Shown here: piece after piece, positions 793-41,640 of the stretch
Layout: every line of letters starts with the position of its first letter
Position numbering within the stretch: the stretch's first letter is position 1
Source of the DNA: Candidatus Micrarchaeota archaeon
Lineage (GTDB): Archaea > Micrarchaeota > Micrarchaeia > Anstonellales > Bilamarchaeaceae
Assembly: GCA_023248035.1 (NCBI GenBank)
Contig: JAHFFJ010000004.1
Span: forward strand, 12,048-54,163
Reading direction: 5' to 3'
Length of the DNA stretch: 42,116 nt
Made by a program: the position numbers and the translations under genes
Notes under the pieces: model-generated
What the model saw: only the letters and a program-made list of their open reading frames with translations
Told to the model about the DNA's origin: nothing
Databases searched by the model: none

Positions 793-2331
793 TTATTTTA
801 CAAGTTGATGGGCTTTCTTTATACCCTCCCAACTTTCCCCTTTTATGAGAGCATAAGCAACTTTTTTTATCCCAGCTATTTCAGTCCGTATTTGCTCACC
901 AGTATTCCTATACCGAATAGTAACCGTACCCTTCTCAAGTGTTTCATAATCTATTGTGATCGCTATAGGTATTCCTATTTCATCCGCTCTTGCATATCGC
1001 CTTCCAATACTTCCACTCTCACGATAATCAACGTCCAATCCTACAAGGCGTAATTCACTTACAACTTCTTTTGCTTTATTGTCAAGGCCATCTTTACTCA
1101 TAAGTGGGAAAACAGCGACATGGTAAGGTGCAATAATAGCAGGAAAATCGAACCACTCCCATTCCTTAGCGGTTCCGTGCTTCCAGTTTCCAGCTTCGTC
1201 TTTCTCATCTTTATCTCTAAAACAATGCTCAAGAATACAGAAAAACAGCCTATCCAATCCCATCGCTATCTCAAAAACATGGGGGACTATCTTTCTCCCA
1301 TCAACATGGACGCTAAAGTCCTTTCCGCTTTGTTTTGCATGTTGTGAAAGGTCAAAATCAGTACGGTAAGAATTTCCAATTGTTTCAATTGCACCATATG
1401 AAGTTTCAACTTCCATATCTATGTTCCCTTTGGAATAATGAGGTAATTCGTTCTGGTCAAGCACACGATAATACATCTTACTCGTATCCACACCCGCTCG
1501 CTTATAAAATTCCCATCCGCGAACAAGGTAATATGCCATTATCTCATTAGCAGTAACTTTTTCTTTCACAATCTCTCCACTAGTCATTTCTTTTTTTACC
1601 CCACCAATCATCATGGTCAGGCTTTGAGTAGATAAGCTATCAAAAATTTCATGCTTGTCCTTAAGAGGATCAAAAAAATATTCCAGTTCCATTTGCGTAA
1701 ATTCTCTCATTCTCACAAGGCCTTTTCTTGGTGAAATCTCATTTCTAAAACTTCTGCCCACCTGGCCTACTGCAAGAGGTAGCTTGGTGCCATGGTTCCT
1801 AAAAAGCCTGGGGAATGCTGTAAAAGTTCCCTGCGCAGTTTCCGGCCTTGAATATCCCGGAACCCTCTCCCCTCCGATTTGGGTTGCAAACATAAGGTTG
1901 AATTTGTATGCCTTTCCAAAACTCCCCTGGCATCTTGGGCAAACTATCTTTTGATCCGCTATTATCTGATCTAGTGTTTCGAGTTTGCCATCCCAGCGTC
2001 CACCCTGCTTTTCATAGTGTTTTTCTTCTGCTAGATGGTCTGCCCGGATGCGTGTCTTGCACTTTAAACATTCTACAACCGGATCAGAAAAATTTGCAAC
2101 ATGTCCTGATGCTATTAGTACTGGTTCAGGAGTTATAAGCGAACTTTGAATCTCCAAAAAGCCCTCATTTTTTATGAACATTTCACGCCAGAGATTCTCG
2201 ATCTTATGCTTTATCAAAACCCCTACCGGTCCATAATCGTAAAATCCGGCAATTCCACCATATGGTTCATTGCTCGGAAAGAAAAATGACCTTTTTAACG
2301 CTAGTTCAAATATTCTCTCGTGAAGTTGCAT
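793..2331 (-). CDS. glyS: Glycine--tRNA ligase, archaeal/eukaryal dimeric type
   Basis: 512-aa ORF. N-terminus FFFPSNEPYGGIAGFYDYGPVGVLIKHKIENLWREMFI and class II core (RNEISPRKGLVRMREFTQMELEYF) are typical of alpha2 GlyRS. Confidence 0.93.
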   Translation of the reverse strand: MQLHERIFELALKRSFFFPSNEPYGGIAGFYDYGPVGVLIKHKIENLWREMFIKNEGFLEIQSSLITPEPVLIASGHVANFSDPVVECLKCKTRIRADHLAEEKHYEKQGGRWDGKLETLDQIIADQKIVCPRCQGSFGKAYKFNLMFATQIGGERVPGYSRPETAQGTFTAFPRLFRNHGTKLPLAVGQVGRSFRNEISPRKGLVRMREFTQMELEYFFDPLKDKHEIFDSLSTQSLTMMIGGVKKEMTSGEIVKEKVTANEIMAYYLVRGWEFYKRAGVDTSKMYYRVLDQNELPHYSKGNIDMEVETSYGAIETIGNSYRTDFDLSQHAKQSGKDFSVHVDGRKIVPHVFEIAMGLDRLFFCILEHCFRDKDEKDEAGNWKHGTAKEWEWFDFPAIIAPYHVAVFPLMSKDGLDNKAKEVVSELRLVGLDVDYRESGSIGRRYARADEIGIPIAITIDYETLEKGTVTIRYRNTGEQIRTEIAGIKKVAYALIKGESWEGIKKAHQLVK

Positions 2332-2389
2332 ATTTTTGCTTTGTATGAGCGGTTTTAAATGAGTTTCCGAAGATAACTTTTGGTGTATA

Positions 2390-2809
2390 ATGGTGTATAA
2401 TATAGAGCTTGAAATTGTAAAAACTGCTCCAGATAACGAGCGTGCACGTTATTCTCTTGATATGGCTGATGGATTTCTATTTTCTGCAAAAGAGAAACTA
2501 TCGAACAAAGATTATGGTAGCTCTATTGAAGATGCCAGAAATGCCATCTGTCTGGCAAGTGCTGCTATCATGTTTAAGGATGGCTATATCTCTTCAACAT
2601 TTGAAGGTACCTTAAGTTATCTTTCTCAACATTACCCGGGGAAACTTCCTTTAGATGAATGGAACAAAGTAGAATTTACTATCATAAGTCGTGGGGGAGT
2701 TTATGATTTACTAAATACCATTGTAAAAAAAACCCGTGAGCAGCAATCGAAAAAGGCATTTGAAACCGCAAGTATTTTTGTCAATGTCACTAGGCAAATA
2801 TTAATCTGA
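2390..2809 (+). CDS. HEPN-domain-like small protein
   Basis: 139-aa ORF. The helical pattern ARYSLDMADGFLFSAKEKLSNKDYGSSIEDARNAICLASAAIMFKDGY resembles HEPN. No nucleotidyltransferase partner is adjacent. Confidence 0.45.
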   Translation: MVYNIELEIVKTAPDNERARYSLDMADGFLFSAKEKLSNKDYGSSIEDARNAICLASAAIMFKDGYISSTFEGTLSYLSQHYPGKLPLDEWNKVEFTIISRGGVYDLLNTIVKKTREQQSKKAFETASIFVNVTRQILI

Positions 2810-2899
2810 ATGAAGCGAACGAGCCTCAAGTAGATCCAGAGATTTTTAGAGTTTGAATTCCCACTATAATCTAGAGTAATTGGGGAAGAGGCAAACAGA

Positions 2900-3943
2900 T
2901 CAACGGACAAAAAAGAACAGCACTGCTATGATAAGGTACATTATCACAAGCTGTGCCCCTTCAAACCAATTACATCGTCCATCGGTTGAAATTTCGTTTA
3001 CTATAAGTACGCTTGCAAAGACTGCGATAACTTCAAAAGGCGTGAAAACCAGATCCATTCCCTTTCCCATTAGTGTACCTGCAATCACAGTAAGGGGTGC
3101 AACAAACATTGCTATCTGGAGGGATGACCCCACAGTGACATTGACACTCAAATCAAGATCGTTTTTAAGTGCGAAAAATACGGCTGCAAGATGCTCAGCT
3201 GCATTACCAACTACTGCTACTATTATTGCACCTATAAACAGTTCAGTAAGTCCAAAATTTTCAGCAACGTGCTCTATCTGACCAACGAAAACTTCGCTGA
3301 TAATTCCTAACAATATTGTAGAAACTACAAGTACGCCTATTGCAAAATTCCTACTCCATTGTGCCTTTTCACCATCTTCTTTTGTTCTAAAAAGATATTG
3401 GTGGGTTTTGAGAGAAAACACCATACTGAGCGTGTAAATCGAGATCATCAAAATTGATACGCAAAGGCTTAGTATGTGCTCATCCTCATTACGATGCTCT
3501 GCCGGCACAAAATGGAACAAACTCGGAATCATTATGCTCATGAAGGCAATTAGGAGCATAGTCGAATTCATACCTGCAAGATGGGTAGAAAATTTTTGCT
3601 CCTTAAATTTCAAACCTCCAAAAAACAGACTAAGTCCAAATACGAACAAGAGATTGCCTATTATACTTCCTGCAATTGAAGCCTTTACTAGTTCTATCAG
3701 GCCTTTATTTATGGCTAGGAGTGCAATTATCAATTCCGCAGCATTTCCAAATGTAGCATTTAGTAAGCCACCAATCTGCCCCCCATAAATTTTTGCAAGT
3801 TCTTCGGTAGCTTCCCCCATCTTTGCTGCTAATGGGAGAATTGCAAGTAGGGAAGATACAAAAATAACCGTGCTATCTGCCCCAACAAAATTTAGGACTA
3901 GGGTAATAGGAATGAAAATTAGCAAAATGTCCATTATTCGCAT
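2900..3943 (-). CDS. Ca2+/H+ antiporter (CaCA/CAX family)
   Basis: 347-aa polytopic ORF with both alpha-repeat signatures, GNAAELIIALLAINKG and GNAAEHLAAVFFALKNDLDLSV. Confidence 0.88.
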   Translation of the reverse strand: MRIMDILLIFIPITLVLNFVGADSTVIFVSSLLAILPLAAKMGEATEELAKIYGGQIGGLLNATFGNAAELIIALLAINKGLIELVKASIAGSIIGNLLFVFGLSLFFGGLKFKEQKFSTHLAGMNSTMLLIAFMSIMIPSLFHFVPAEHRNEDEHILSLCVSILMISIYTLSMVFSLKTHQYLFRTKEDGEKAQWSRNFAIGVLVVSTILLGIISEVFVGQIEHVAENFGLTELFIGAIIVAVVGNAAEHLAAVFFALKNDLDLSVNVTVGSSLQIAMFVAPLTVIAGTLMGKGMDLVFTPFEVIAVFASVLIVNEISTDGRCNWFEGAQLVIMYLIIAVLFFFVR

Positions 3944-4092
3944 GACTGTTTCTCCACTATTGAAATTAAATCAATTCCGATTACCCACAATCTCGTGCAA
4001 ATATTGATGCCCACAAAGAATAAGCATAAAAACAACAACCTATCACCATTTATAACCATTAAGCATCAAACCCTTATATCTCATGTGATTTC

Positions 4093-4821
4093 TTGACCTT
4101 GGAGCAAAACCAAATTACTCATCTTTTTATCTGGGTGCACCCCGTATGGTTCCCAGTACTTGATAGTCGTCTTAGCGAATGGAAAGCGTTTATCGAACTT
4201 CTAGCCTATGAACCACATATAGGGCTTGTGGAAACGCGGGGGCTTGGACCGGGTGGTCTATCCAGGTTACTTGGGCTAGTAGCCAAAAACCGTCCCAACG
4301 AATATGAATCTGAACGGAAGCATCTCTGCTCATTAGATACGATAGAAATGCTTGCAGAATGCATTCTTGGAGACAGATACCTGCTTTGGCCGAACCCGCA
4401 GGAGAATGGTATTGGGAATGGTTTTGTAGTCGGAAGCAATAGCGACCATTTCCGGCTTCTTGCCGAAAGGTTTAATATAGATGAAAGATGGCAGCAAAAC
4501 TCGATAACTTCCGAGAAGAAACTATTTTCGCAGATAGCTGTTTACGGCCTCAAACCCGAAGTATGTGTCTACCACCAAGCGTGGAACATGGATCTGCACC
4601 GACTCTCATCCAGAATAGTATCATTGGGCATATCGCCCTTAGGCTGCATTGGAAGAGATTATGGAATCCCATCTTCGAAGGAAACGTTATCATTCATGTC
4701 TTCCCGACCAGAAATTTTCAGAAGAGATGAAATTGAACGCGGTCGCGAATACTTAACGTGGCTCGGCAAACATCCCTGGGAAAAACCACTCCATCGCCCT
4801 AAGCGGATTGCTTCACGCTAA
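4093..4821 (+). CDS. Hypothetical protein
   Basis: 242-aa ORF (TTG start) filling an otherwise empty interval. No motif recognised. It looks more GC-rich than its neighbours by eye. Confidence 0.45.
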   Translation: MTLEQNQITHLFIWVHPVWFPVLDSRLSEWKAFIELLAYEPHIGLVETRGLGPGGLSRLLGLVAKNRPNEYESERKHLCSLDTIEMLAECILGDRYLLWPNPQENGIGNGFVVGSNSDHFRLLAERFNIDERWQQNSITSEKKLFSQIAVYGLKPEVCVYHQAWNMDLHRLSSRIVSLGISPLGCIGRDYGIPSSKETLSFMSSRPEIFRRDEIERGREYLTWLGKHPWEKPLHRPKRIASR

Positions 4822-4869: not shown

Positions 4870-7662
4870 TTGGGATTTGAAATGGACGTTGACAAAAACT
4901 TACTTAGAAAACAGTTTGGTGCAGAATGGGAAAAGCACTACAAACTTAAAGTCCTGATCGATCGAGGCTTCAAAAGGCAAAAATGTTCCAAATGTTCGCG
5001 CATGTTTTGGGCCAAAGATGGCAGATCGAATGTGGATAAACCTACTTTGTGTGGTGATCCGTCATGCATCGGTTATCAGTTCATAGGCAATACTCCTGTA
5101 AAAAAGAAACTTGGCTATATAGAAACCTGGAAAGAAATTGAAAAATACTTTACAAAAAACGGTCATGGCTATATCAAACCCTATCCAACAGTTGCAAGGT
5201 GGCGGGATGACCTTTACTTTACTATAGCATCGATAAATGATTTCCAGCCCTATGTTGTAAATGGCGAACTAGATCCGCCTGCAAATCCGCTTATTGTTCC
5301 TCAACCATGCATCCGTTTTTCAGATATAAGCAATGTAGGTGTGAGCGGCAGGCACTACACGAATTTCGTCATGGTTGGCCAGCATGCATTTAATACAAAA
5401 AAGAGTGGCCTTTTCTACTGGAAAGAGCAGGCGCTTGAACACGATCTTAATTATCTAAAAGCCCTTGGAATTCCTGAAGATGAAATCATTTTCCAGGAAG
5501 ATGTCTGGGCAGGCGGAGGGAATTTCGGTCCATGCATAGAATATTTCTGTCGGGGTTTAGAGCTTGGTAACTGCGTTTTTATGCAATACGAAACCACCCC
5601 TCCAAATACCAATACTGTTGGTGGAGTTCACTATCGCGAGCTTAATACTAAAGTTATAGATATGGGTGCAGGTCTAAGCAGGCTGGCATGGATCACTTCA
5701 GGCGAACCAACCAGTTACGAAACTGTTTTTGGTCCTGTAATCGACAAGATGAAGAAAAAAGCCGGTGTTTCCATTGACAAGGATCTTTTTGTAAGATTTG
5801 CTAAAATCTCAGGAAGTCTAAATGAAGATGAAGTTCCTGATCTGGAAAAAGAGAAAGAGCGTATCGCTCAAGTTTTGGGTGTAACTAAACGTGAACTTTT
5901 CGATACTCTCGAACCCCTACAGGCTCTTTATGCATCTGCCGATCATTTATGCACCCTCCTCTTTACGGTCACTGATGGTATGCTCCCAAGCAACTCAGGT
6001 GGTGGCTATAATCTTCGGCTCATATTAAGGAGGGTGTTTGGTTTCCAGCAGCGATTTGGTTATGATCTTGATTATTCTGAAATAATGCATGGTCATGCCG
6101 ATTTTCTCGAATATATATTTCCTCATCTTCAAAACGGGGTTGATACTTCACTTGCAGTAATCGAAGAAGAAGCGAAACGCTACCGTGCGACAAAGGAAAA
6201 AGCAACCGGCATGGTTCTAAATATAGTGAAGAAAGCTAAAGGAGCAAGCGCAGGAAAAAACGCAATCCCCAGCAAGGAACTCATAACTCTCTACAAGAGC
6301 CATGGTATTCCACCCGAAGCAATTCAGGAAGTTGCAGCTGAAAACGATGTCGAAGTTGAAATGCCCGGAAATTTCTATAGCCTGGTAAAGGAAAAAGAGG
6401 AGAATCTAAGTCCATCTGAAGACGAAACCAAGCTCGCAAAAATAAGGAATTACACCTCAGATATGAAGAAAACTCTTCTTCTCTATTATAAGGAAGAAAA
6501 CTACCAAAAAGGAGATTTTACTGCCAAAGTGATCCATGTTGATGATAGCACTGGTTTCATTGTTCTTGACCAGACCCTTTTCTATCCTGAGGGTGGCGGT
6601 CAGGTATCTGATAATGGAACTATTGACGGGCATACTGTTGATTCCGTAATAAAAAATTCGGGAATAGTTTTGCATCACGTTGGAAAGGAAGCGATAAAGA
6701 AATTCAAGATTGGTCAGAATGTAAAAGGAGCAGTTAATCTTGCCCGCCGTAAAATTATCTCCCGCCATCACACTGGTGCACATCTGCTCAATGCCGCTTG
6801 TCGTGAGGTTTTAGGACCACATATCTGGCAGGGAGGTTCAAACAAGTCCGAGGAAAAAGCCCACCTTGATGTTACCCACTATCGAAAAATCTCAAACGAT
6901 GAACTTGCACGAATTGAGCAAAAAGTAAATGAATACATCATGGCAAATCTTCCAGTTGTTACTGAAACTCTTGTGCGTAACGAAGCAGAAGCACGTTATG
7001 GGTTTACTATCTACCAGGGAGGAGCGGTGCCAGGAAAAGAGCTGCGTATCGTGAGTATTGGCGAGCCGAAGAAGGAAGTTGATTCTGAGGCATGTGGTGG
7101 AACGCACGGCATGCACAGTCACACTGGCGAACTTGGCTGTTTCAAAATTGTTCGTCGCGAAAGCGTGCAAGATGGGATCGAACGTATAACCTACAAATGC
7201 GGTTCAGTTGCAATAGCCTATATGCAGGAACGCGAGCAATTGCTTCATGAAGCTGCTGGTGTGGTGAGTGTTTCCGAAAATGAGCTCAAACCTACTGTTG
7301 AAAGATTCTTTAACGAATGGAAATCCCAACGCAAGAAAATTGAAGAACTAAGCGAGCTTCTTGTAACCGAAGAGGCAAAAGATTTACTCTCTTCATATTC
7401 CGGAGTGCCTGTAATGAAGATGCTTGATCTGGATGAACCTTCACTCAAGAAACTCGCACTAAAAGTTGCTGAAAGTGATGGAGTTGCATGCTGTCTTCTC
7501 AACAAATCAGGAAATCTAATTTGTGCTGCAGGCAAAAATTCCGGACAAAAAGCAAAAGCAATGCTTGATAGAGTTCTTAGTGAGCTTGGCGGTTCAGGTG
7601 GTGGAAGTGACAGAATTGCACAAGGGAAGGCAAAGACAATAAAAATAGTAAAATTTAGCTGA
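4870..7662 (+). CDS. alaS: Alanine--tRNA ligase (archaeal type)
   Basis: 930-aa ORF with an archaeal AlaRS N-terminal catalytic region, editing-domain HxxxH (SRHHTGAHLLN) and CGGTH motifs, and a C-terminal DHHA1-like end. The likely true start is ATG 4882 (MDVDKNL). Confidence 0.94.
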   Translation: MGFEMDVDKNLLRKQFGAEWEKHYKLKVLIDRGFKRQKCSKCSRMFWAKDGRSNVDKPTLCGDPSCIGYQFIGNTPVKKKLGYIETWKEIEKYFTKNGHGYIKPYPTVARWRDDLYFTIASINDFQPYVVNGELDPPANPLIVPQPCIRFSDISNVGVSGRHYTNFVMVGQHAFNTKKSGLFYWKEQALEHDLNYLKALGIPEDEIIFQEDVWAGGGNFGPCIEYFCRGLELGNCVFMQYETTPPNTNTVGGVHYRELNTKVIDMGAGLSRLAWITSGEPTSYETVFGPVIDKMKKKAGVSIDKDLFVRFAKISGSLNEDEVPDLEKEKERIAQVLGVTKRELFDTLEPLQALYASADHLCTLLFTVTDGMLPSNSGGGYNLRLILRRVFGFQQRFGYDLDYSEIMHGHADFLEYIFPHLQNGVDTSLAVIEEEAKRYRATKEKATGMVLNIVKKAKGASAGKNAIPSKELITLYKSHGIPPEAIQEVAAENDVEVEMPGNFYSLVKEKEENLSPSEDETKLAKIRNYTSDMKKTLLLYYKEENYQKGDFTAKVIHVDDSTGFIVLDQTLFYPEGGGQVSDNGTIDGHTVDSVIKNSGIVLHHVGKEAIKKFKIGQNVKGAVNLARRKIISRHHTGAHLLNAACREVLGPHIWQGGSNKSEEKAHLDVTHYRKISNDELARIEQKVNEYIMANLPVVTETLVRNEAEARYGFTIYQGGAVPGKELRIVSIGEPKKEVDSEACGGTHGMHSHTGELGCFKIVRRESVQDGIERITYKCGSVAIAYMQEREQLLHEAAGVVSVSENELKPTVERFFNEWKSQRKKIEELSELLVTEEAKDLLSSYSGVPVMKMLDLDEPSLKKLALKVAESDGVACCLLNKSGNLICAAGKNSGQKAKAMLDRVLSELGGSGGGSDRIAQGKAKTIKIVKFS

Positions 7663-7984
7663 CTTGCGGTACTGTTTTATTATGTGTTGGTGCTGTTTTT
7701 TCAATCAGTTCAAGTTCAAGTTCCTTTATTTTTTTCACAATCGGACTTTTTTCATTAATCTTATATAATTTTGTCTTGCCAAACGAACGTGTAGGTACGA
7801 CAATTTCAAGTTCAACTATGTTCTCCCAATATTTGTAAAAGGTTGCCTTTGCAAGCTCTGTCCCATCTATTATTTGTTTTTTCGAATAGTCAAATAGCCT
7901 GTTTTCAAGAAGGAAATCAATTATTCTAAGAATGGGTGTATCCCCAAAATATTCTATCAGTACTGATTTCTCATCCTCTTTCAT
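7655..7984 (-). CDS. Winged-helix DNA-binding protein
   Basis: 109-aa ORF. TPILRIIDFLLENRLFDYSKKQIIDGTELAKATFYKYWENIVELEIVVPT is wHTH-like. It is divergent from 8039-8311 across an AT-rich promoter region (tttataaatata). Confidence 0.6.
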   Translation of the reverse strand: MKEDEKSVLIEYFGDTPILRIIDFLLENRLFDYSKKQIIDGTELAKATFYKYWENIVELEIVVPTRSFGKTKLYKINEKSPIVKKIKELELELIEKTAPTHNKTVPQVS

Positions 7985-9423: not shown

Positions 9424-9544
9424 CCACTTTACAATAAAGTGAAATTTTCTTAAATCCGACCATAAAAAAAGCCATTTTTTCTGTTTTATCTACATAGAAA
9501 TAGTCAATCTAACATTTCAAAATGAAAAATAGCCCCGGGCAGAT

Positions 9545-9760
9545 TCTCGAGCTTTTGGAAAAAGCTCGACCAAAACGGTCTGCTAATTTTTGCTTTTTTC
9601 TGTACGCTCGCCTTATCGGCTCGCACAGAACTGATAACAAAAATGGTTTACTAAAGTTCAGTAATTTTCCGATAAGGAAAATTCAACTGAACAAAAACCA
9701 AAAACCCGAAAAGGGTTTTCAACAGAAAGTTTTGATCAAAACTTTTTCTAAAAGTTTTGT
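9545..9760 (-). other. tRNA-Gln intron 2, inside the T-loop (~216 nt), full-length modular element
   Basis: It separates GGCAGTTCGA from ATCTGCC; the junction is ambiguous within GAA. It contains H1 (9738-9758), H2 (about 9700-9720), H3 (9656-9692), M (9602-9626), ccaaaacggtctgctaat (9570-9587) and H4 (9547-9569). Confidence 0.7.
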
Positions 9761-9803
9761 TCGAACTGCCGTCAAGAGGTCCAGAACCTCCTATCCTTGA
9801 CCA

Positions 9804-9915
9804 AAGTCTGCACTTTTTTAGGAAAAAAGTGCACAAAAAACTGGTTTGTTATCAGTCAAAAACCCGAAGGGGGTTTCAACACCAATTTTTGATCCAACTT
9901 TTTTTGAAAAAGTTG
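9804..9915 (-). other. tRNA-Gln intron 1, inside the D-loop (~112 nt)
   Basis: It separates GTCTAGCC from TGGTCAAGGAT. It contains hairpins ccaac..gttgg (9894-9916) and gcac..gtgc (9810-9832) and an H2 copy (about 9858-9878). Confidence 0.7.
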
Positions 9916-9955
9916 GGCTAGACGACGGGGCTATAACTGAAATTTGTTTGATAAG

Positions 9956-9965: not shown

Positions 9966-10009
9966 CTACTTATGCGAGCTATTCACTCTGGCAGAATGCT
10001 TAGATGACT

Positions 10010-10135
10010 GTTCAGTAATTTTCCGATAAGGAAAATTCAACTGAACAAAACCAAAAAACGAAACTTATATATAGTGGGAAACTTCTAATAAATGTGTACA
10101 GTTAGTTTTTTGGTTCTTTTTTCCTAAAAAAGAAC
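10010..10135 (-). repeat. Solo (non-tRNA) fragment of the intron element
   Basis: Positions 10010-10046 are a 37/37 identical copy of hairpin H3 (9656-9692; reverse complement at 18665-18701), followed by caaaaccaaaaaa. Positions 10112-10135 are an H-type hairpin, ggttcttttttcctaaaaaagaac. No tRNA exon-like sequence flanks them. Confidence 0.6.
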
Positions 10136-10189
10136 GGTGAATATGATGGTGAATAAGGAGGTTAAGGAAAGGGATTTCCTTCATAGGCA

Positions 10190-10468: not shown

Positions 10469-11426
10469 AGTACCACGTCCAGTTCGACCTAGCTACAAAA
10501 ATGAATTTGTAGAAAAAAGAGTGGTTTCCTACATGTTTTTGCCACCAGAAACACCTTACTGTAATACTCGGTGTACCGGTTGTTATGTTTTTGATTCTGG
10601 TTCTTATAGAGCAAGAGTTCAGAGAACAGATGCAGAAATATTATATGATATAGAGAATTTAACGTCAAAAGGTTACACGGTATATCCAACTACAACAGAA
10701 ATATTGATGATGCGAGATTATTTGAGAATTTTACAAACAGTAGGTGCAAAGTCAGTATTAACAAATGGAATATTAATTACTGAACAACCGGAAATATCAG
10801 AACAGCTAAAATCTATTGGAATTGAACAAATTATAATAACGGGAAATTTTGAGAACAGCGGTTTAAGTCTTACCCCAAATAAACTAATCGAAAGAGCGAT
10901 AGATACAATAAATGCTAGCAAACTTGGCATTCTTCTTAGAATAACTATAACTCCGGAAAACCTAGAAGCAATTCCCGATATGGTTCGCTCATGCGCCTCT
11001 AGGGGAATTAGGATAATCGAATTTATGAGGTATGTTCCGCTTGGAAACAGCGGTGCAGTTAGTTTAAATGACGAACAAACAAGGCGATTTTTTTCTATCC
11101 TAGAACAAATGCGTAAAGATTATCCGGATATCTATCTTGCTCCTACTGGAACATTCGGTACTCAATATAGAAAAAAACAATGGAAATGTACCTCCGGTTA
11201 TACCTATTTCGCAATAGGTTTGGATAATCTCGTTTATCCCTGTATCTTTTTGACCCAAGCAGAAAATGCAATTGGCAAGTATGAAGGTGGCGAAATAATT
11301 ATTCAAAGAAATTTCGAAGCCGCAGGTGACCAGTATGATTGCCCAGCCTATAGCTATGCTTCTAGAAGATCTGGTCTAATTCCTGCAAATAAGCTAGTAA
11401 GAAATGGAGGTGTAAAATATGACTAA
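10461..11426 (+). CDS. Radical SAM protein with a short Cys-containing (Twitch/SPASM-like) C-terminal region
   Basis: CNTRCTGCY is the CxxxCxxC motif. The C-terminal part has C-x9-G-x7-C (CTSGYTYFAIGLDNLVYPC) plus one further Cys (DCPAY). The preferred start is ATG 10461, preceded by GGGAGGAAG and overlapping the stop of the previous ORF (ATGATTAA). The track ORF starts at 10395. Confidence 0.8.
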   Translation: MIKVPRPVRPSYKNEFVEKRVVSYMFLPPETPYCNTRCTGCYVFDSGSYRARVQRTDAEILYDIENLTSKGYTVYPTTTEILMMRDYLRILQTVGAKSVLTNGILITEQPEISEQLKSIGIEQIIITGNFENSGLSLTPNKLIERAIDTINASKLGILLRITITPENLEAIPDMVRSCASRGIRIIEFMRYVPLGNSGAVSLNDEQTRRFFSILEQMRKDYPDIYLAPTGTFGTQYRKKQWKCTSGYTYFAIGLDNLVYPCIFLTQAENAIGKYEGGEIIIQRNFEAAGDQYDCPAYSYASRRSGLIPANKLVRNGGVKYD

Positions 11427-17102: not shown

Positions 17103-18098
17103 GTGCTACTCATGTCTGAATGGAAATCTCAAAAACCTAGTGGGGATAGAGGCGGAAAAAGATCTAATGAACGTCCAAATCGATCAGGATATCGCGGGGG
17201 CGGCAATCGTTCCAGAGACGAAAATAGTCGTGGTTATGGGCGAGATTATAATCGTGGCGGAAATGACGATGGCGGTTTTAACAAGCGCGAGCGCTTTATG
17301 CGAAAATCCCGTGACAGCGTTATGCAGGCGTTAAAAAGCCGTGACATGCTTCTTGCAAGCGTAACAAAGTCCATCGAAGATCTGGATAAGACAATTAACC
17401 TTCTTGGCGAGCGTCTTGAAGACTGGTATAGTCTTTATTTCCCAGAACTTAAGACTGATGAAAAAATCAAATTTTGCAATGCAATACTCATAATTGACCG
17501 AGATAATTTTGATGAAAACGCTCTCTCTGCTATACTTGGCCAGAAGCATGCTTTAGAACTTGCACAATCATCTAAAACAAGTCTTGGAACAAAACTCTCT
17601 TCAAAAGACCTTTCAGAATGTCTTTTACTTGCAAAATCCATTCTTTCTCTTGAAACTTTAAGGAAGGATTACGAAAATTATCAGAAAGAACTTGCACATG
17701 AACTTTGTCCCAATCTTTCTGAAGTTGGCGGTCCGGAAATCGCTGCAAAGCTGGTTTCACATGTAGGTTCACTGGTGAGACTTGCAATGCTCCCTGCGAG
17801 TGCGATACAGGTTTTGGGTGCGGAAAAAGCCCTTTTTAAACACTTAAAGAACCGCAGAATCCCTCCTCCAAAGCACGGAATAATATTTCAATATGCACGC
17901 ATTTCATCATCACCAAAAAGTGTTAGGGGTAAAATTGCCCGTGCACTTGCAAACAAGCTTTCAATCGCTGCAAAGGCCGATGCATTTACAAAAAATCCAA
18001 TATTCGCTGATCTGAAAAAGGATCTCGAAACTCGTCTATCTGAAATCATGGTGGATTACGAGAGACAAAAGAAAGCAAAAGTAACTCCTCCAGCTTAA
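17103..18098 (+). CDS. nop5: Nop5 (Nop56/58)-family C/D box RNP protein with an RGG-rich N-terminus
   Basis: The coiled-coil and Nop domains are colinear with archaeal Nop5 (LGERLEDWYSLYFPEL; VLGAEKALFKHLKNRRIPPPKHGIIFQ; GKIARALANKLSIAAKADAF). The first ~75 aa are GDRGGKRSNERPNRSGYRGGGNRSRDENSRGYGRDYNRGGNDDGGF. The likely start is ATG 17112. Confidence 0.85.
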   Translation: MLLMSEWKSQKPSGDRGGKRSNERPNRSGYRGGGNRSRDENSRGYGRDYNRGGNDDGGFNKRERFMRKSRDSVMQALKSRDMLLASVTKSIEDLDKTINLLGERLEDWYSLYFPELKTDEKIKFCNAILIIDRDNFDENALSAILGQKHALELAQSSKTSLGTKLSSKDLSECLLLAKSILSLETLRKDYENYQKELAHELCPNLSEVGGPEIAAKLVSHVGSLVRLAMLPASAIQVLGAEKALFKHLKNRRIPPPKHGIIFQYARISSSPKSVRGKIARALANKLSIAAKADAFTKNPIFADLKKDLETRLSEIMVDYERQKKAKVTPPA

Positions 18099-18558: not shown

Positions 18559-18830
18559 GGGGAAATGAGCTAACCTGGTATGCTGTCAGCTTTGGGTCTC
18601 CACCTTTTAGGAAAAGGTGGAGCCAAAACGTGCTGTTTCAAAACCCTTTCGGGTTTTTGGTTTTGTTCAGTTGAATTTTCCTTATCGGAAAATTACTGAA
18701 CTTCACAAACCATTTTTGTAAGTGCGAGCCGATAGGCGAGCGAACGAAACAAAAATTAGCAAGACTGTTTTGGGTACCTTTTAAGGTATCAAAAGAGCTG
18801 GTTGTCTGAGTTCAAATCTCAGTTTCCCCA
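18559..18830 (+). tRNA. tRNA-Pro(UGG) with a 199-nt intron at 37/38
   Basis: Exon 1 is 18559-18596 (GGGGAAATGAGCTAACCTGGTATGCTGTCAGCTTTGGG). Exon 2 is 18796-18830 (AGCTGGTTGTCTGAGTTCAAATCTCAGTTTCCCCA). Features are acceptor GGGGAAA/TTTCCCC, anticodon arm TCAGC-TTTGGGA-GCTGG, T arm CTGAG-TTCAAAT-CTCAG and discriminator A. Confidence 0.88.
18597..18795 (+). other. tRNA-Pro canonical-position intron (199 nt), full-length modular element
   Basis: It contains H1 ctccaccttttaggaaaaggtggag (18598-18622), H2 aaaaccctttcgggtttt, H3 (18665-18701), M (18722-18745), attagcaagactgttttggg (18755-18774) and H4 gtaccttttaaggtat. CAAA (18790-18793) pairs with loop nt 32-35 UUUG, leaving an AG|A bulge at the 3' splice site. 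Confidence 0.8.
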
Positions 18831-18975
18831 TAAAAGGAACCAAGGTTCCTTTTTATCCTCCTTTGAAAAGAACCAATGGTTCTTTTTGAATCTCATGAAA
18901 GAACCTACGGTTCTTTCTATCTCCCTCTTTTTTGAATCAAGGTTTCTTTCTAACTTCCTTTTCTTTGAGTATTTT
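18831..18975. repeat. Tandem array (~4 units, ~33-nt period) of palindromic hairpins
   Basis: The units are aaaaggaaccaaggttcctttt, gaaaagaaccaatggttcttttt, gaaagaacctacggttctttc and a degenerate fourth, separated by the pyrimidine spacers atcctcc, gaatctc, atctccc and aacttcc. The first hairpin plus T5 sits directly 3' of tRNA-Pro (terminator-like). Confidence 0.75.
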
Positions 18976-20247: not shown

Positions 20248-20955
20248 ATGGCAGCAACATCAAGGCCACCTTCAGTTGCTCTACCGCCAGAACAAAGACC
20301 ATCTCCATTTGCTCTGGATCCAGAACAAAGACCAAAACCCAAAGGTACTTATAGTTCTAGATCACCTCAAGTTGAATCTCCTCAATCTATACGCTCTGTT
20401 ACTCCTGCTAATCGATCTGGTGCAATATCCAGAAAGCCTCGATCAGACCAAGAAGAAAAATTATCTCCAGAAGAAAAAACAAGGCAATTGACCCTTATAG
20501 CAAGACTAAAAACAAATGTAGCCGGAATCACATCCGATGATTTTTCAGAATTTATTAGAGCTAGTACTGATTGCGAAGTTGCTTTGGCTTTCACTTCTCT
20601 TTTGGCAGTGTATCTTGATCGGCACGAACCGGAACATATATTTCTTGTTTCTATCTTAGTTGCCTTTTCTGGTTCAGAAGAACTTAGGAGTCATGGCATT
20701 CTTTGTCTAAAAAACATAGCGAAAAATGGCCATAATATTTGTGAATTCTTAGACTCTACTGGCAATTCCAACTCCACAGGCCCTACAAATCCACTTAGAC
20801 TTATTATGGAAGATATAAATCTATCAGGTATTTCCAATATAATTGATATACTTGTGTTGCATGCAAATCTTGGTCATACTCAAAGAGCCCAAGTTTTAGA
20901 TGTTATCGAAGGGAAACCCGATTTTGTTAGACTAAAAACTGCGTTAACTATATAG
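20248..20955 (+). CDS. Hypothetical protein with a Pro/Ser-rich repeat-containing N-terminus
   Basis: 235-aa ORF with the internal DNA/peptide duplication PPEQRPSPFALDPEQRPKPKG. Its stop abuts the 3' end of the convergent tRNA-Thr. Confidence 0.5.
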   Translation: MAATSRPPSVALPPEQRPSPFALDPEQRPKPKGTYSSRSPQVESPQSIRSVTPANRSGAISRKPRSDQEEKLSPEEKTRQLTLIARLKTNVAGITSDDFSEFIRASTDCEVALAFTSLLAVYLDRHEPEHIFLVSILVAFSGSEELRSHGILCLKNIAKNGHNICEFLDSTGNSNSTGPTNPLRLIMEDINLSGISNIIDILVLHANLGHTQRAQVLDVIEGKPDFVRLKTALTI

Positions 20956-20989
20956 CCTCGGGAGGGATTTGAACCCCCGGCCTCCTCCT

Positions 20990-21107
20990 TGCCCGCTTTT
21001 GGTAAAAGCGGGACCAAAACAGTCTTGCTAATTTTCGCTGCGCGAAAATGTAAAACCCGAAAGGGTTTTCAACAGAAAGTTTTGATCCAACTTTTCCTAA
21101 AAGTTGG
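20990..21107 (-). other. tRNA-Thr intron at 37/38 (118 nt), element variant lacking H3
   Basis: It contains H1 ccaac..gttgg (21087-21107), caacagaaagttttgatc, H2 (about 21051-21070), ccaaaacagtcttgctaat (21014-21032) and H4 cccgc..gcggg (20992-21012). Intron nt -6..-3 CGGG pair with loop 32-35 CUCG, leaving a CA|A bulge. Confidence 0.75.
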
Positions 21108-21128
21108 TACGAGAGAGGCGCTCTACCA

Positions 21129-21208
21129 TTTTTCGCGCTTTTTTAGTAAAAAAGCGCACCAAAAAACTAACAATAAGTTTTTGATGCACCTTTTTTCTAA
21201 AAAGGTGC
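21129..21208 (-). other. tRNA-Thr D-loop intron (80 nt), minimal element (H1 - closing stem - H4)
   Basis: It separates GCTCAGT from TGGTAGAGC. The hairpins are gcacc..ggtgc (21186-21208) and gcgc..gcgc (21135-21157), with AUCAAAAAC...GUUUUUUGGU between them. Confidence 0.7.
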
Positions 21209-21245
21209 ACTGAGCTACCGAGGCTTTAATTCAAATTAAATAGTC

Positions 21246-21255: not shown

Positions 21256-21496
21256 GACCTGAGCATTTTCATGAAAGTGTACCCCCGGAGAAAAAATTCA
21301 AATGAACAGGGAAAAAAGGATGATGTTTACTGAATTTTTGACTTGGATAACTGTGGGTGTCAATACGGATGAAGTTTGATGAAACTTTACCATAAGTTTA
21401 TAGGAGGAAAGTTTCGTTTGATGAAACTTTAACTGGAGTCTGTACGAAGTAAAGTTTCAAATGCGCCCGCCGGGATTCGAACCCGGGTCATTAGCT

Positions 21497-21543
21497 CTCA
21501 TCTTTACCCCTAGTTTTGGGCCGCCTTTTCCTAAAAGGCGGAA
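21497..21543 (-). other. tRNA-Gly anticodon-loop intron (~47 nt)
   Basis: It lies between CTTCCA and AGCTAA. It contains the H-type hairpin ccgccttttcctaaaaggcgg (21521-21541) followed by CCCAAAAC. I could not draw a clean 4-bp central helix for a canonical BHB here. Confidence 0.6.
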
Positions 21544-21564
21544 TGGAAGGCTAAGATCCTACCG

Positions 21565-21678
21565 TTTTCCAAGCTTTTAGGTGCGAGCACACCCTGTTAG
21601 GGCGTGTCGCGGTTTCATCAAAACCGATTCGTTATTTTTAACTAATCAGTTTTTGTGAAACTTTTTCCTAAAAAGTTT
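21565..21678 (-). other. tRNA-Gly D-loop intron (~114 nt)
   Basis: It contains hairpin aaac..gttt (21658-21677), CACAAAAAC...GGUUUUGAUG, and a long GC-rich hairpin gtgcgagcacaccctgttagggcgtgtcgc (about 21581-21610) at the M-module position. Confidence 0.6.
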
Positions 21679-21717
21679 GCTAGACTACAGGCGCTTTTTT
21701 CTTTTGTTGTTAAGTTG

Positions 21718-21727: not shown

Positions 21728-22192
21728 TCACAGCTTTTTCCTCATTTCTATGTGCATGTCTCTAAAACCCCACTTCTTGTACAATCCATGGGCTTCAGGA
21801 TTTATCGCATGCACCCCTATAGATGCATACGTCATCTTTTTCTTTTTGAACCATGCAAGCGTTTCTTTTACTAATTGCTCACCGATGCCTTTGCCACGAT
21901 ATTTTTCCTTCACATACAAATCAAATATATGACCAAGCCTCTTGAGCTTGAAAACTTTCACGTTGTTCTTTATTGCGCTTAATGAATACCCCACTATTTC
22001 GTCATCCTCTTTCGCAACAAGTACGAGCCTATTCGACGATTTTATACCTTTCAAGACCCATAGTTTCCATTTGCGTTCGGCGTCATCTACTAAATCAAGC
22101 ATCGAGCTTCCACGTATCCTGTGGAATTGCATGAGTTCGTTCCATAACACTAAAAGAACTTTAACATCTTTTGGAGTGGCCTTTCTTATCAT
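21728..22192 (-). CDS. GNAT-family N-acetyltransferase
   Basis: 154-aa ORF. LYVKEKYRGKGIGEQLVKETLAWFKK is motif A. Confidence 0.85.
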   Translation of the reverse strand: MIRKATPKDVKVLLVLWNELMQFHRIRGSSMLDLVDDAERKWKLWVLKGIKSSNRLVLVAKEDDEIVGYSLSAIKNNVKVFKLKRLGHIFDLYVKEKYRGKGIGEQLVKETLAWFKKKKMTYASIGVHAINPEAHGLYKKWGFRDMHIEMRKKL

Positions 22193-22839
22193 CAGAATAC
22201 GCCAGCCAGTTCAGCCAAAAAGGTTTTAGGATCTTTAGCTTTTACAAATGCACTTGCAAGCAACACTCCCTCAGCACCCAATTCCAGGGCTTTTTTTACA
22301 TCCTGCTTGTTGCTCACACCTGCTCCACAAAGCACCTTCACATGGTGATTGACATCTTTGATTGCACGTACTGAGTTTACCACTATTTCCGGACGCACCT
22401 TTGAAACACTAATTCCCTTGCCTATAAGTTCTGGAGGTTCCACAGCAATAAAAGTGGGTTTATGCGATACTATCGAAGCCGCTTCATTAGTTGTTGCTGC
22501 ACAAACAATACTCTCTAACCCATTCATATGTAGCCTTTCTATAGTTTGGGCCATCTTATCGCGAGCAAGTTTTTTCTCAGAATGATTTATAATCGAGCCT
22601 TTTACCTTTATGTCCTTTAACATCTCAGCAGCTATCGAACCAGTGTACGCTCCTGGAGGTTCAGGGTCAGTATGTTGTGCAAATATATCACACGAGCGGC
22701 CTGTTGCTTCCTTAAGGTAGGGTGTAGGTGGACAAACAACTATTCTAAGGCCGGTTTTACCCACAATCTCATCAGCTATGTCTGCAAAAAGAAGCGATCT
22801 TTCTATATCTGTATATGTCTTAAGGTTAAGGACTATCAT
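22192..22839 (-). CDS. tpiA: Triosephosphate isomerase (short archaeal type)
   Basis: 215-aa ORF with NLKTY, IINHSEKKL, AVEPPELIGKGISVS and CGAGVSNKQDV...GVLLASAFVKAKDP. Confidence 0.9.
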   Translation of the reverse strand: MIVLNLKTYTDIERSLLFADIADEIVGKTGLRIVVCPPTPYLKEATGRSCDIFAQHTDPEPPGAYTGSIAAEMLKDIKVKGSIINHSEKKLARDKMAQTIERLHMNGLESIVCAATTNEAASIVSHKPTFIAVEPPELIGKGISVSKVRPEIVVNSVRAIKDVNHHVKVLCGAGVSNKQDVKKALELGAEGVLLASAFVKAKDPKTFLAELAGVF

Positions 22840-22877: not shown

Positions 22878-22885
22878 AAAAAAAA
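22878..22885 (-). terminator. Oligo-T tract directly 3' of tRNA-Ser
   Basis: Eight consecutive T on the minus strand start at the nucleotide after discriminator G (22886). Archaeal RNAP terminates at oligo-T. Confidence 0.5.
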
Positions 22886-22900
22886 CGCCGAGGGCAGGAT

Positions 22901-23006
22901 CCCCAACTTTTAGGGAAAGTTGGATCAAAACAGTCTTGCTAGTTTTAAAAACCCGGAAGGGTTTTTCAACAAACTGTTTTTGTAAAACTTTTTTCCTAAA
23001 AAGTTT
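22901..23006 (-). other. tRNA-Ser T-loop intron (~106 nt), element variant lacking H3/M
   Basis: It contains H1 aaaac..gtttt (about 22984-23007), caacaaactgtttttgt, H2 aaaaacccggaagggttttt (about 22947-22968), tcaaaacagtcttgctagt (22924-22943) and H4 ccaac..gttgg (22903-22923). Confidence 0.7.
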
Positions 23007-23035
23007 TTGAACCTGCAATCCACGAGGGATCGGCT

Positions 23036-23072
23036 CTCTCGTAAAATTTGTTCCGTTTTTCCAACAGATCCG
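23036..23072 (-). other. tRNA-Ser canonical 37/38 intron (37 nt)
   Basis: Loop nt 32-35 CUCG (23078-23075) pair perfectly with intron nt -6..-3 CGAG (23041-23038). The 3' bulge is AG|A. Confidence 0.8.
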
Positions 23073-23096
23073 TTCGAGACCGACGCACTACCGGAA

Positions 23097-23187
23097 TGCA
23101 CTGCTGCCTCCAGTTTCCCGTTTTGTTTCGTTCGCTCTCCTTATCGGTTCGCACGAAACTGAAAACTCGAGACTGAAAACGCAATTA
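23097..23187 (-). other. tRNA-Ser D-arm intron (~91 nt)
   Basis: The junction is ambiguous within a duplicated GCA. It contains hairpin CGCA-TAAT-TGCG, the direct repeat GTTTTCAGT x2, the M module (23129-23154, RNA GTGCGAACCGATAAGGAGAGCGAACG) and AAACAAAA as in the Pro intron. Confidence 0.6.
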
Positions 23188-23200
23188 TGCGACCTCGGCA

Positions 23201-23950
23201 CTAATATGAATAACTGGCCATGCTTGCTATAAACAAGAAAGCATAAATTGCCAGAACCACTGCTATTGGTATCAACACCACTGCTGCTGCTCTTAAACGG
23301 TCTAGTTGGTGCACGGTCTTTATTATTTTGTAATTTAGGTATATCGAATATACCGCTATTATGATGCTTAATATTGATCCTAGGCAGGGTATCACCAGTA
23401 GTGGGAAAACGATATTCCATGCTGATGTGACAAATGAGCTGAAATAAACTTGCTCAGTATATTTGCCCTTTCCACCCAATAGCTTTGCAATCAGAAAAGA
23501 AATTCCCTGACCTACTAGCAATACTATAGGTTCTAAGACGATTATCATAACTGCGTATATTATCCCAAAAACTATCAGCCCCAGGCCCAAAGCTCCCCCT
23601 AAAACCCCGCCCATTTCACTACTAATGCTTCCAAATAGGCTGTTGGCGATTGAACCAAAAAACAGTCCTATTATCGCAAAAAGGAGCAATGCTCCTACTG
23701 CAGGCACCAGAGAAGATAATGCTACATTGATTACTGCTTCCTTTAAGTCAGCCTTTGATTTCTGCTCCTGCATAATCTGATCGGTTTTTGAAGGCTCCAA
23801 AAACCTAAACCACAACTTTATCCGCTCAAGTACCATGAGAAGTAATTCAGTCAAACCAGTTAAATTCCTTGCGATAAGCCATCGATGCCATTCTGACCAA
23901 AAATTCTTGTCCTCTATTGCCGGCCTTGGCCTGTATATTTTTAAAATCAT
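23201..23950 (-). CDS. Polytopic membrane protein (possibly Yip1-domain family)
   Basis: 249-aa ORF with about 5 hydrophobic segments after a soluble N-terminus. The family call is by gestalt only. A TATA-like TTTATAGC (23226-23234) for tRNA-Ser lies within its 3' end. Confidence 0.65.
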   Translation of the reverse strand: MILKIYRPRPAIEDKNFWSEWHRWLIARNLTGLTELLLMVLERIKLWFRFLEPSKTDQIMQEQKSKADLKEAVINVALSSLVPAVGALLLFAIIGLFFGSIANSLFGSISSEMGGVLGGALGLGLIVFGIIYAVMIIVLEPIVLLVGQGISFLIAKLLGGKGKYTEQVYFSSFVTSAWNIVFPLLVIPCLGSILSIIIAVYSIYLNYKIIKTVHQLDRLRAAAVVLIPIAVVLAIYAFLFIASMASYSY

Positions 23951-40689: not shown

Positions 40690-41376
40690 ATGGATCGAGT
40701 AAAGACTGGAATATCTGGAATGGACGAAATGCTTAATGGGGGGATTCCAACTGGAAGACATGTAGCTCTTTATGGCGGACCAGGATCAGGAAAATCATCA
40801 TTCTGTTTTGAGTTCCTCTATCAGGGTGCAAAAATGGGCGAACCGGGACTCTACATTACTCTCGAAGAAACTACTGAAGATATAATAGATAATATGAAAA
40901 ACACATTCCCACTTCTCACCGAGACATCAAAGTTGATAGAAGCAAAAAAGCTTGAAATAGTAAAACCAGAAAAGCTCGACCTTGAAGATGTAGCTAATCT
41001 TCTTGAAGATCGGATCACATCTAACGGGATAAAGCGTGCGGTTATAGATTCCTCGACAATGATCCGCCTTTCTTTCCAGAGTGAGGTGGAATACAGGCAG
41101 ACTCTTTTCGAATTCCTTTCTCTCCTTCGTAATCTCGATGTTACTACTATTACGACTGTGGAAGCAACATCCGCAAGAAAAGAAGAAATGAGATTCGATA
41201 TCGAACAGTTTGTTATGGATGGAATCATAAACCTCTATAATCTCGATCGCGAGGATAGGCGGGTTCGTGCGCTTGAAATCTTCAAAATGCGTGGGAGTGA
41301 CCACTCGCGTGATCTCGTGCCATTTAAGGTGACGCCATCGGGAATCAAGGTTTATGTGGGTGAAAAAGTCTTCTAA
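40690..41376 (+). CDS. KaiC/RecA-superfamily ATPase (single domain)
   Basis: GISGMDEMLNGGIPTGRHVALYGGPGSGKSSFCFEFLYQGAKMGEPGLYITLEE and ALEIFKMRGSDH. Confidence 0.85.
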   Translation: MDRVKTGISGMDEMLNGGIPTGRHVALYGGPGSGKSSFCFEFLYQGAKMGEPGLYITLEETTEDIIDNMKNTFPLLTETSKLIEAKKLEIVKPEKLDLEDVANLLEDRITSNGIKRAVIDSSTMIRLSFQSEVEYRQTLFEFLSLLRNLDVTTITTVEATSARKEEMRFDIEQFVMDGIINLYNLDREDRRVRALEIFKMRGSDHSRDLVPFKVTPSGIKVYVGEKVF

Positions 41377-41640
41377 TAAAAGGAACCAATGGTTCCTTTT
41401 TATCCTCCTTTTTAAGTGATCATGGTTCTTTTTGAATCTCCTTTGAAAAGGACCAAGGTCCTTTTCTAATCTCCTTTTCTTTGAATGGTTCTGTTCCAAT
41501 CTCCTTTTTATTTGAAATGAAAGAAACCAAGGTTTCTTTTTAACTTCCTTTTGAAAGGAAACTACGTTTCCTTTCTAACCTTCCTCCATTAGAACGGTTC
41601 TTTGCAACTTCCTTTTTCTTTCAATTCCTCCAGATGTTTA
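41377..41640. repeat. Tandem array (~7 units) of palindromic hairpins, sister of 18831-18975
   Basis: The units include aaaaggaaccaatggttcctttt, gaaaaggaccaaggtccttttc, gaaagaaaccaaggtttcttttt and gaaaggaaactacgtttcctttc, plus degenerate ones. The spacers are atcctcc, aatctcc, taatctcc and aacttcc. The first ~32 nt are near-identical to the start of the 18831 array. Confidence 0.75.

Follow-up and report, generated by a model that had tools for sequence, protein, structure and literature searches.

A probable three-intron tRNA-Ser(CGA) gene and a family of hairpin-bounded tRNA introns in an uncultured DPANN archaeon

A tRNA-Ser(CGA) gene in four exons

We analysed a 42,116-nt stretch of archaeal DNA (the window) and found that positions 23199..22886 of its minus strand very probably hold a functional class II tRNA-Ser(CGA) gene, interrupted by three introns, of an uncultured DPANN archaeon (Table 1). 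By sequence comparison the gene appears far beyond chance, given its synteny in related genomes, a mean column identity of 94% in an alignment of eight spliced sequences and compensatory changes in its stem pairs. It had first been proposed in a reading made from the letters of the DNA alone (the sequence-only reading), which placed both gene ends correctly and described a class II tRNA-Ser(CGA) split at 37/38 as well as in the D region and the T loop. This description is borne out by ARAGORN on the spliced product, by a motif at each junction and by seven syntenic, covarying orthologues. The earlier observation is therefore confirmed in part, its D junction and exon sizes being off by 2-3 nt.

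The 82-nt spliced sequence is called tRNA-Ser(cga) by ARAGORN. As the sequence-only reading had noted, the acceptor stem is a perfect 7 bp (GCCGAGG/CCTCGGC) with a discriminator G, the variable region is 13 nt long and the T arm is perfect, GCAGG-TTCAAAT-CCTGC. Moreover, the product carries the other marks of a class II tRNA-Ser, namely U8, A14, G18G19, a T loop of TTCAAAT (consensus TTCRANY), a long variable arm, G73 and a serine anticodon, CGA, at 23076..23074. The D loop reads A14-A15-U-C-C-G18-G19-U-A and the D stem has 4 bp, one of them U13-G22; the presence of A14 depends on the corrected 15/16 junction that is described below. The G+C content is 61% in the exons, 40% in the introns and 39.8% in the window.

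The surroundings of the gene are also largely as first described. A T8 run lies at 22885..22878, and the orthologous tRNA-Ser genes likewise end in T runs. The stop codon of the upstream open reading frame (ORF; 23950..23201), a member of the Yip1 family by Pfam, lies right beside exon 1 and ends 1 nt ahead of it, and the TTTATAGC box to which attention had been drawn sits within the 3′ end of that ORF. In the raw window ARAGORN found no tRNA, and Rfam returned nothing at the gathering threshold and chance small-RNA matches alone at E<=10. A null test counted 7-bp stems that close within 420 nt ahead of a T run; 26 were observed, compared with 8.9 on average in shuffled sequence, although the many A/T hairpins make this test non-discriminating.

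Table 1. Features of the window and of the related loci. Positions are those of the window, except for rows that begin with a locus label (L), where they are those of the related metagenome contig.
Feature	Position	Strand	Description
tRNA-Ser(CGA), whole gene	22886..23199	-	314 nt = 82 nt exon + 232 nt intron; CCA not encoded
Exon 1, GCCGAGGTCGCATAA	23185..23199	-	15 nt; acceptor 5′ strand, U8, C9, D-stem 5′ strand, A14, A15
Intron 1	23096..23184	-	89 nt at 15/16, D loop; relaxed hBH
Exon 2, TCCGGTAGTGCGTCGGTCTCGAA	23073..23095	-	23 nt; D loop remainder (G18 G19), D-stem 3′ strand, G26, anticodon stem 5′ strand, loop through A37
Intron 2	23036..23072	-	37 nt at canonical 37/38; HBh′
Exon 3, AGCCGATCCCTCGTGGATTGCAGGTTCAAA	23006..23035	-	30 nt; A38, anticodon stem 3′ strand, variable region, T-stem 5′ strand, T loop through A59
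Intron 3	22900..23005	-	106 nt at 59/60, T loop; full hBHBh′
Exon 4, TCCTGCCCTCGGCG	22886..22899	-	14 nt; U60, T-stem 3′ strand, acceptor 3′ strand, discriminator G73
T8 run	22878..22885	-	directly after G73; putative archaeal oligo-T terminator
Candidate TATA box, TTTATAGC	23226..23233	-	centred ~31 nt upstream of tRNA position 1; putative promoter element
tRNA-Gln(CTG)	9932..9530	-	403 nt; introns 9917-9804 (114 nt, 15/16) and 9759-9544 (216 nt, 59/60)
tRNA-Pro(TGG)	18559..18830	+	intron 18597-18795 (199 nt, 37/38)
tRNA-Thr(CGT)	21224..20954	-	introns 21209-21129 (81 nt, 15/16) and 21107-20990 (118 nt, 37/38)
tRNA-Gly(TCC)	21694..21462	-	introns 21679-21565 (115 nt, 15/16) and 21543-21497 (47 nt, 37/38)
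L004 tRNA-Ser(CGA)	5825-5936		intron at 37/38 only
L005 tRNA-Ser(CGA)	3175-3298		intron at 59/60 only, 42 nt
L006 tRNA-Ser(CGA)	5829-5945		introns at ~30/31 and 37/38
L171 tRNA-Ser(CGA)	7826-7943		introns at ~30/31 and 37/38
L172 tRNA-Ser(CGA)	3174-3289		introns at ~30/31 and 37/38
L169 tRNA-Ser(CGA)	2611-2491		intron at 37/38 only; opposite orientation
L170 tRNA-Ser(CGA)	6873-6764		intron at 37/38 only; opposite orientation
L006, match to intron model	9676-9781		37/38 intron of tRNA-Thr
L004, match to intron model	10849-10951		37/38 intron of tRNA-Thr
L169, match to intron model	3919-4070		tRNA-Gly(TCC) (within 3900-4150), introns at 15/16 and 59/60
L169, match to intron model	5499-5795		tRNA-Thr(CGT), three introns (15/16, 37/38, 59/60)

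Motifs at the splice junctions

Junctions were placed by a bulge-helix-bulge (BHB) rule. Two exon nucleotides belong to the 5′ bulge, the four that precede them pair with intron positions -6 to -3, and both cuts fall after the second nucleotide of the bulge. A strict or relaxed BHB motif can be drawn in this way at all three junctions of the tRNA-Ser gene. Intron 3 has a full hBHBh′ motif, gcaggTTCA[AA|A]acttttt...aaaagtTGGG[GA|T]cctgc, with an h′ helix of 5 bp, an H helix of 4 bp (two of them G-U) and an h helix of 6 bp. Intron 2 has an HBh′ motif, gtcggtCTCG[AA|C]...CGAG[AG|A]gccgat, in which the H helix consists of 4 Watson-Crick pairs and the 6-bp h′ helix is formed by the anticodon stem. 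Intron 1 has a relaxed hBH motif, GCAT[AA|T]tgc...gcaGTGC[AT|T], with 4 bp in H (one G-U), 3 bp in h and none in h′. The predicted junctions are AA|TC (15/16), AA|AG (37/38) and AA|TC (59/60).

The sequence-only reading was thus right about the number of exons and of introns, about the 37-nt intron at 37/38 and about an intron of some 106 nt in the T loop. The boundary of the latter is best placed at 59/60, and the first intron, put at about 91 nt and 12/13, is instead 89 nt at 15/16. The exon sizes of 12, 24, 29 and 15 nt were wrong because the D-arm junction was wrong, and they become 15, 23, 30 and 14 nt.

Conservation in related archaea

The gene downstream of the tRNA-Ser gene (22839..22192) encodes an archaeal triosephosphate isomerase (TIM). 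The identical protein occurs on metagenome contigs, of which the longest has 322 kb. The nearest homologues share only 60-72% identity with it, suggesting an uncultured DPANN archaeon without a close sequenced relative; where named, they belong to Candidatus Micrarchaeota or Micrarchaeia, with a few labelled 'ainarchaeum'. We compared the DNA around eight of these TIM homologues, taken from related DPANN metagenome contigs. In seven of the eight loci a tRNA-Ser(CGA) gene lies directly beside TIM, whilst the remaining locus (L003, 60% TIM identity) has a tRNA-Gln there. This tRNA-Gln(CTG), upstream of TIM at 3891-3979, has a 14-nt D-loop intron at 15/16 (GTCT[AG|A]...GGAC[AA|T]) and is miscalled tRNA-Ile(aat) by ARAGORN.

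The D arm is uninterrupted in all seven orthologues and reads GCATAAYCCGGTAGYGC (GCAT-AAYCCGGTA-GYGC), which fixes the D-loop junction of the window gene at 15/16. The window yields such an arm solely by joining ...GCATAA (23185) to TCCGGTAG... (23095), and in two of the orthologues (L005 and L171) the arm is exactly the product of that junction, a product that the 12/13 junction is unable to give. It follows that the D stem has 4 bp and the tRNA 82 nt, in place of the 3 bp and 80 nt of the sequence-only reading.

The intron sets of the orthologues differ from that of the window, which points to conserved exons and to introns that come and go. An intron at 37/38 is found in six of the seven, and the one in the window has the same ends, CGGAT...ACGAGAG, as the short introns at this site in L172 and L006; it therefore appears old. 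Among the eight compared genes the 15/16 intron occurs in the window only.

Covariation ties the four exons together. Across the eight sequences 97.9% of the cells of the cloverleaf pair, as against 28-49% in slid controls. Four stem pairs have changes on both sides, and the covariation score was reached by none of 500 shuffles. One of these observations spans the whole gene: pair 6:67, between exon 1 and exon 4 and about 300 nt apart, has G:C in the window against C:G in each of the seven orthologues. This compensated pair argues strongly that the four exons function together as a single tRNA.

Two LAGLIDADG domains were seen in these loci. In L171 a free-standing LAGLIDADG_3 ORF (7160-7840) overlaps the first 15 nt, at the 5′ end, of the tRNA-Ser gene; we considered it as an intron ORF and rejected this, since it lies upstream of the gene and not inside an intron. 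In L006 an upstream radical-SAM gene (1980-4412) contains an intein bearing a LAGLIDADG domain.

Other interpretations of the locus

The exon arrangement of the sequence-only reading, 12/24/29/15 with a first intron of about 91 nt at 12/13, is very unlikely. Its 80-nt join is also called tRNA-Ser(cga) by ARAGORN. However, on checking by hand no BHB can be drawn at 12/13 or at the equivalent junctions after positions 9-13, and the D loop of this model lacks A14. Moreover, all seven orthologues have two extra nucleotides there, GCATAAYCCGGTAG.

Equally, there is very little to be said for a dead gene, that is, a former tRNA-Ser(CGA) broken by repeated insertions resembling miniature inverted-repeat transposable elements, unspliced and unused. 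Such a view draws on the weak motif at intron 1 and on the modules that introns 1 and 3 share with other repeats of the window, including one copy outside tRNA genes (~9979-10137). Against this, all stems are intact, the changed pair 6:67 is compensated and the insertions sit exactly where a BHB can form. Such insertions are also found in each of the window's five tRNA genes (Gln, Pro, Thr, Gly and Ser) and in those of the relatives, so that essential tRNAs would be lost if they were not removed. As all five are interrupted alike and each splices to a proper tRNA, the interrupted genes cannot all be dead.

Different processing at the 5′ side is exceedingly improbable, in spite of two pairings that look attractive on paper. 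The first, cgaggtCGCA[TA|A]ttgc...gtagTGCG[TC|G]gtctcg, would cut after 23186 and before 23081 and comprises 14 bp (6 in h′, 4 in H and 4 in h), but cutting here would take away the D arm along with half of the anticodon stem and leave no tRNA. Its H helix is simply the D stem, and the pairing is probably a by-product of that stem. The second joins position 24 to position 117, giving a 79-nt product with a CGCA-TAAT-TGCG D arm that is still called tRNA-Ser and equals the preferred solution in solver score; this product is without G18G19 and disagrees with all seven orthologues, whose D loop reads UAAUCCGGUAG.

Several observations nonetheless weigh against a functional three-intron gene. The intron-1 motif is weak, with a 3-bp h helix, one G-U pair in H and no h′, and two structures compete with it: the 14-bp pairing at 23186/23081, which looks stronger and would delete the D arm, and the local hairpin CGCA-TAAT-TGCG, which the minimum free energy (MFE) fold favours. 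The unconstrained MFE fold of the 314-nt precursor as a whole has the acceptor stem, the T stem and a rod-like intron 3 and is without the anticodon stem and the intron-1 motif. Among the 20 largest ORFs of the window, Pfam reveals no EndA or RtcB gene. Lastly, the analysis covers the window, and another, uninterrupted tRNA-Ser(CGA) may exist elsewhere in the genome.

Further interrupted tRNA genes and a family of introns

Four further tRNA genes were found by reading the intergenic regions matched in a BLAST of the Ser introns against the window (Table 1). The window's tRNA genes therefore number five, every one of them interrupted, and together they carry ten introns of 37-216 nt. All five spliced products are called correctly by ARAGORN, whereas none of the raw genes was found by ARAGORN or Rfam. 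A brute-force search through combinations of BHB introns, with ARAGORN on the products, proved too permissive when ranked by summed helix length, the introns being A+T-rich and hairpin-rich; it recovered the Ser, Pro and Gln solutions among others and missed Thr and Gly. The junctions of the latter two were set by comparison with orthologues, followed by ARAGORN on the spliced product. Their 15/16 introns have poor H helices, with two of four pairs in Thr (21129-21209) and three of four in Gly (21565-21679), such that the exact 3′ splice sites are uncertain. The orthologous 15/16 introns have perfect H helices (GCTC:GAGC in L004, GTCT:GGAT in L169).

Comparison of the window with itself showed that, apart from one unrelated hairpin array, these introns are its only repeated DNA. 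The Gln 59/60 and Pro 37/38 introns are 81% identical over 186 nt, and five introns align over their full length (9544-9759, 9804-9917, 18597-18795, 20990-21107 and 22900-23005). The plan common to them begins with a 5′ hairpin, followed by (G)ATCAAAAC and then by CTGTTGAAAACCC-TTYC-GGGTTTT; an optional insert of some 100 nt comes next, ahead of AAAATTAGCAAGACTGTTTTGG and a closing 3′ hairpin. In the window the pattern N5-CTTTT(T)-N1-3-AAAA(A)G-N5′, its flanks complementary and covarying, recurs in twelve hairpins, 11 of them at the extreme 5′ or 3′ end of an intron; examples are 18599-18621, 21185-21209, 20991-21013 and 9547-9569. The 3′ strand of the 3′ hairpin overlaps nucleotides that are needed for the exon-pairing H helix, and so the local hairpin competes with the splice motif.

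A covariance model built from the five aligned introns scored 95-115 bits on the window members and 36-60 bits on introns of the relatives (Table 1). Ser intron 3 is a typical short member (94.7 bits), with terminal hairpins, AAAACCC-TTCC-GGGTTTT and TAGCAAGACTGTTTTG. Ser intron 1 contains one module of the optional insert, GTGCGAACCGATAAGGAGAGCGAACGAAACAAAAC, which is 91% identical over 34 nt to the tRNA-Pro intron (18722-18754). Similar introns are thus present in different tRNA species and at different positions, as in the transposed or related intron families of Thermoproteales. Taken together, the alignments indicate that at least five window introns form one homologous, modular, hairpin-bounded family at 15/16, 37/38 and 59/60 with members in relatives, and that Ser intron 3 and part of intron 1 are, as judged from these similarities, copies of this family, spread over the tRNA genes of the lineage. 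The window is not alone in having three-intron genes with long introns, since the tRNA-Thr(CGT) of L169 also has three. The sequence-only reading had given three introns as the upper range reported for archaeal tRNA genes, in agreement with the literature (PMC3239211, PMC8450103); within this lineage such a number is not exceptional.

Family modules also occur just upstream of tRNA-Gln, outside recognised tRNA genes (9979-10137, minus strand), where a hairpin GTTCTTTTTTAGGAAAAAAGAAC is accompanied by a copy of GGTTTTGTTCAGTTGAATTTTCCTTATCGGAAAATTACTGAAC; over 48 nt this copy matches the Pro intron with 100% identity. The modules here may represent a free-standing copy or what is left of a lost gene. 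The modules gave no match in Rfam. A scan of metagenome contigs with a 16-mer intron motif, TAGCARGACYGTTTTG, returned at least 120 matches, none intron-like in context, although this pattern is too short to tell of absence; the same scan of viral sequences gave 41 matches, likewise attributable to chance. The window introns are too short for the ORF of a LAGLIDADG or similar homing endonuclease. When the Ser introns were read for a terminal box C (RUGAUGA) and box D (CUGA) pair none was seen, and Rfam gave no match. Moreover, no published description of such a long, modular, hairpin-bounded family at three tRNA positions was found in the full-text literature that was searched, which is not proof of absence.

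We tentatively suggest, while judging it somewhat more probably wrong than right, that the introns of 90-216 nt are copies of one structured mobile element that has colonised 15/16, 37/38 and 59/60 of most tRNA genes in this DPANN clade. The parts of such an element would be the terminal hairpins, whose stems covary and whose CUUUU-NNN-AAAAG core is invariant, a closing helix (CAAAAC/GUUUUG), the AAAACCC-UUYC-GGGUUUU hairpin and the optional insert of about 100 nt. If so, it would be a sequence-defined BHB 'intron transposon' outside Thermoproteales, and it might survive in the form of stable circular RNAs that have their own function.

Three other structures were observed near these genes. 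Within the Thr D-loop intron (~21191/21147, minus strand) there is an internal 23-bp BHB-like structure, tttttagAAAA[AA|G]gtgcatcaaaaa...tttttggtgcgcTTTT[TT|A]ctaaaaa, which could be a nested intron or only a rod-like alternative fold of the two terminal hairpins. The spacer between Thr and Gly (~21310-21460, plus strand) contains GTTTGATGAAACTTTA twice, with a third copy, TGATGAAAC, on the other strand within the Gly D-loop intron, and also an ATGATGT...CTGA pair; these motifs may represent box C/D-like small RNAs, and a Nop5 gene lies in the window at 17103-18098. Lastly, there are hairpin arrays at 18836-18966 and 41376-41621 on the plus strand, downstream of tRNA-Pro and of ORF 40690-41376 respectively; they consist of 3-6 similar hairpins with a T run behind every one (AAAAGGAACCAAGGTTCCTTTTT, with ATCCTCCTTT as spacer and a period of ~45 nt). 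The two arrays are 70-78% identical and look like stacked terminators.

Predicted expression and maturation

What is established directly is the anatomy of exons and introns, together with the motifs, orthology and covariation; the steps that follow are modelled on the established biology of archaeal tRNAs. Transcription would begin at the TATA-like box (23233-23226), or by read-through from the Yip1 gene, and would stop at T8. A splicing endonuclease of broad specificity would then cleave both bulges of each motif. The type of this enzyme is assumed, given that the 20 largest ORFs include neither an endonuclease nor a ligase gene; in ARMAN-2 it is an epsilon2 enzyme. An RtcB-type ligase would join the exons, with the introns released, probably as circles, and addition of CCA would give a tRNA of 82+3 nt.

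Significance and relation to known systems

For the specialist the tRNA-Ser gene is an ordinary one, and the intron family and the failure of both detectors are the more useful results. Given that ARAGORN and Rfam found none of five tRNA genes in 42 kb, a heavy load of introns may often create an artefact of 'missing' tRNAs in bins of DPANN genomes. For the question of how protein-spliced introns spread, this clade offers orthologous tRNA genes with differing intron sets. Together with one recognisable family at three tRNA positions, these make gain, loss and choice of target directly comparable.

Long BHB introns with contents of their own are known from other archaea. The tRNA-Trp gene of Haloferax volcanii has a long intron that encodes a box C/D guide RNA. 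The Ser introns resemble it in placing about 100 nt with a structured RNA of its own at a BHB site, but they are without visible C/D boxes and their modules are without an Rfam match. Archaeal rRNA genes contain BHB introns with LAGLIDADG homing endonuclease ORFs that are mobile and protein-spliced, whereas the introns described here, at a maximum of 216 nt, are too short for a protein. Introns of up to 216 nt with neither an ORF nor C/D boxes appear long in comparison with published archaeal tRNA introns.

The tRNA introns of Thermoproteales are mostly short, of some tens of nt. These archaea have multi-intron tRNA genes with up to three BHB introns in non-canonical places, and an 'intron transposition' has been described in which similar introns in different tRNA species imply spread between genes, with rapid gain and loss among relatives (Sugahara 2007/2008 and Fujishima 2010, summarised in PMC4033280 and PMC8450103). 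The present lineage is alike in having up to three BHB introns per gene, related introns across tRNA species and differing sets in relatives; Thermoproteales, in contrast, are another phylum and have an (alpha-beta)2 endonuclease. The mean load in Thermoproteales is 0.84 introns per tRNA gene, with a record of 71 introns in 46 genes (PMC8450103), compared with 2.0 in the small sample of the window (10 in 5).

The closest parallel in lineage is ARMAN-2 (Candidatus Micrarchaeum acidiphilum), the best studied of the Micrarchaeota, in which 56% of tRNA genes are disrupted, with introns at 59/60 and elsewhere, and whose epsilon2 endonuclease cuts strict and relaxed (hBH) motifs in vitro (Fujishima et al. 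2011, PMC3239211); structures of this enzyme are available (PMC3488258, PMC12397907). Shared with ARMAN-2 are the DPANN/Micrarchaeota affiliation, many interrupted tRNA genes, introns both at 37/38 and at non-canonical sites, 59/60 among them, strict as well as relaxed motifs, and more than one intron per gene. The substrate introns in that study were of 13 and 25 nt (PMC3239211), whereas those of the window are 37-216 nt and form a sequence-related family with terminal hairpins; its endonuclease, unlike that of ARMAN-2, is assumed and not seen.

In summary, the tRNA-Ser gene itself is of a known type, as multi-intron archaeal tRNAs, including those of Micrarchaeota, have been described (PMC3239211, PMC4033280, PMC8450103). 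What stands out is a DPANN lineage with 2.0 introns per tRNA gene, albeit from few genes, and with long, modular introns bounded by hairpins.

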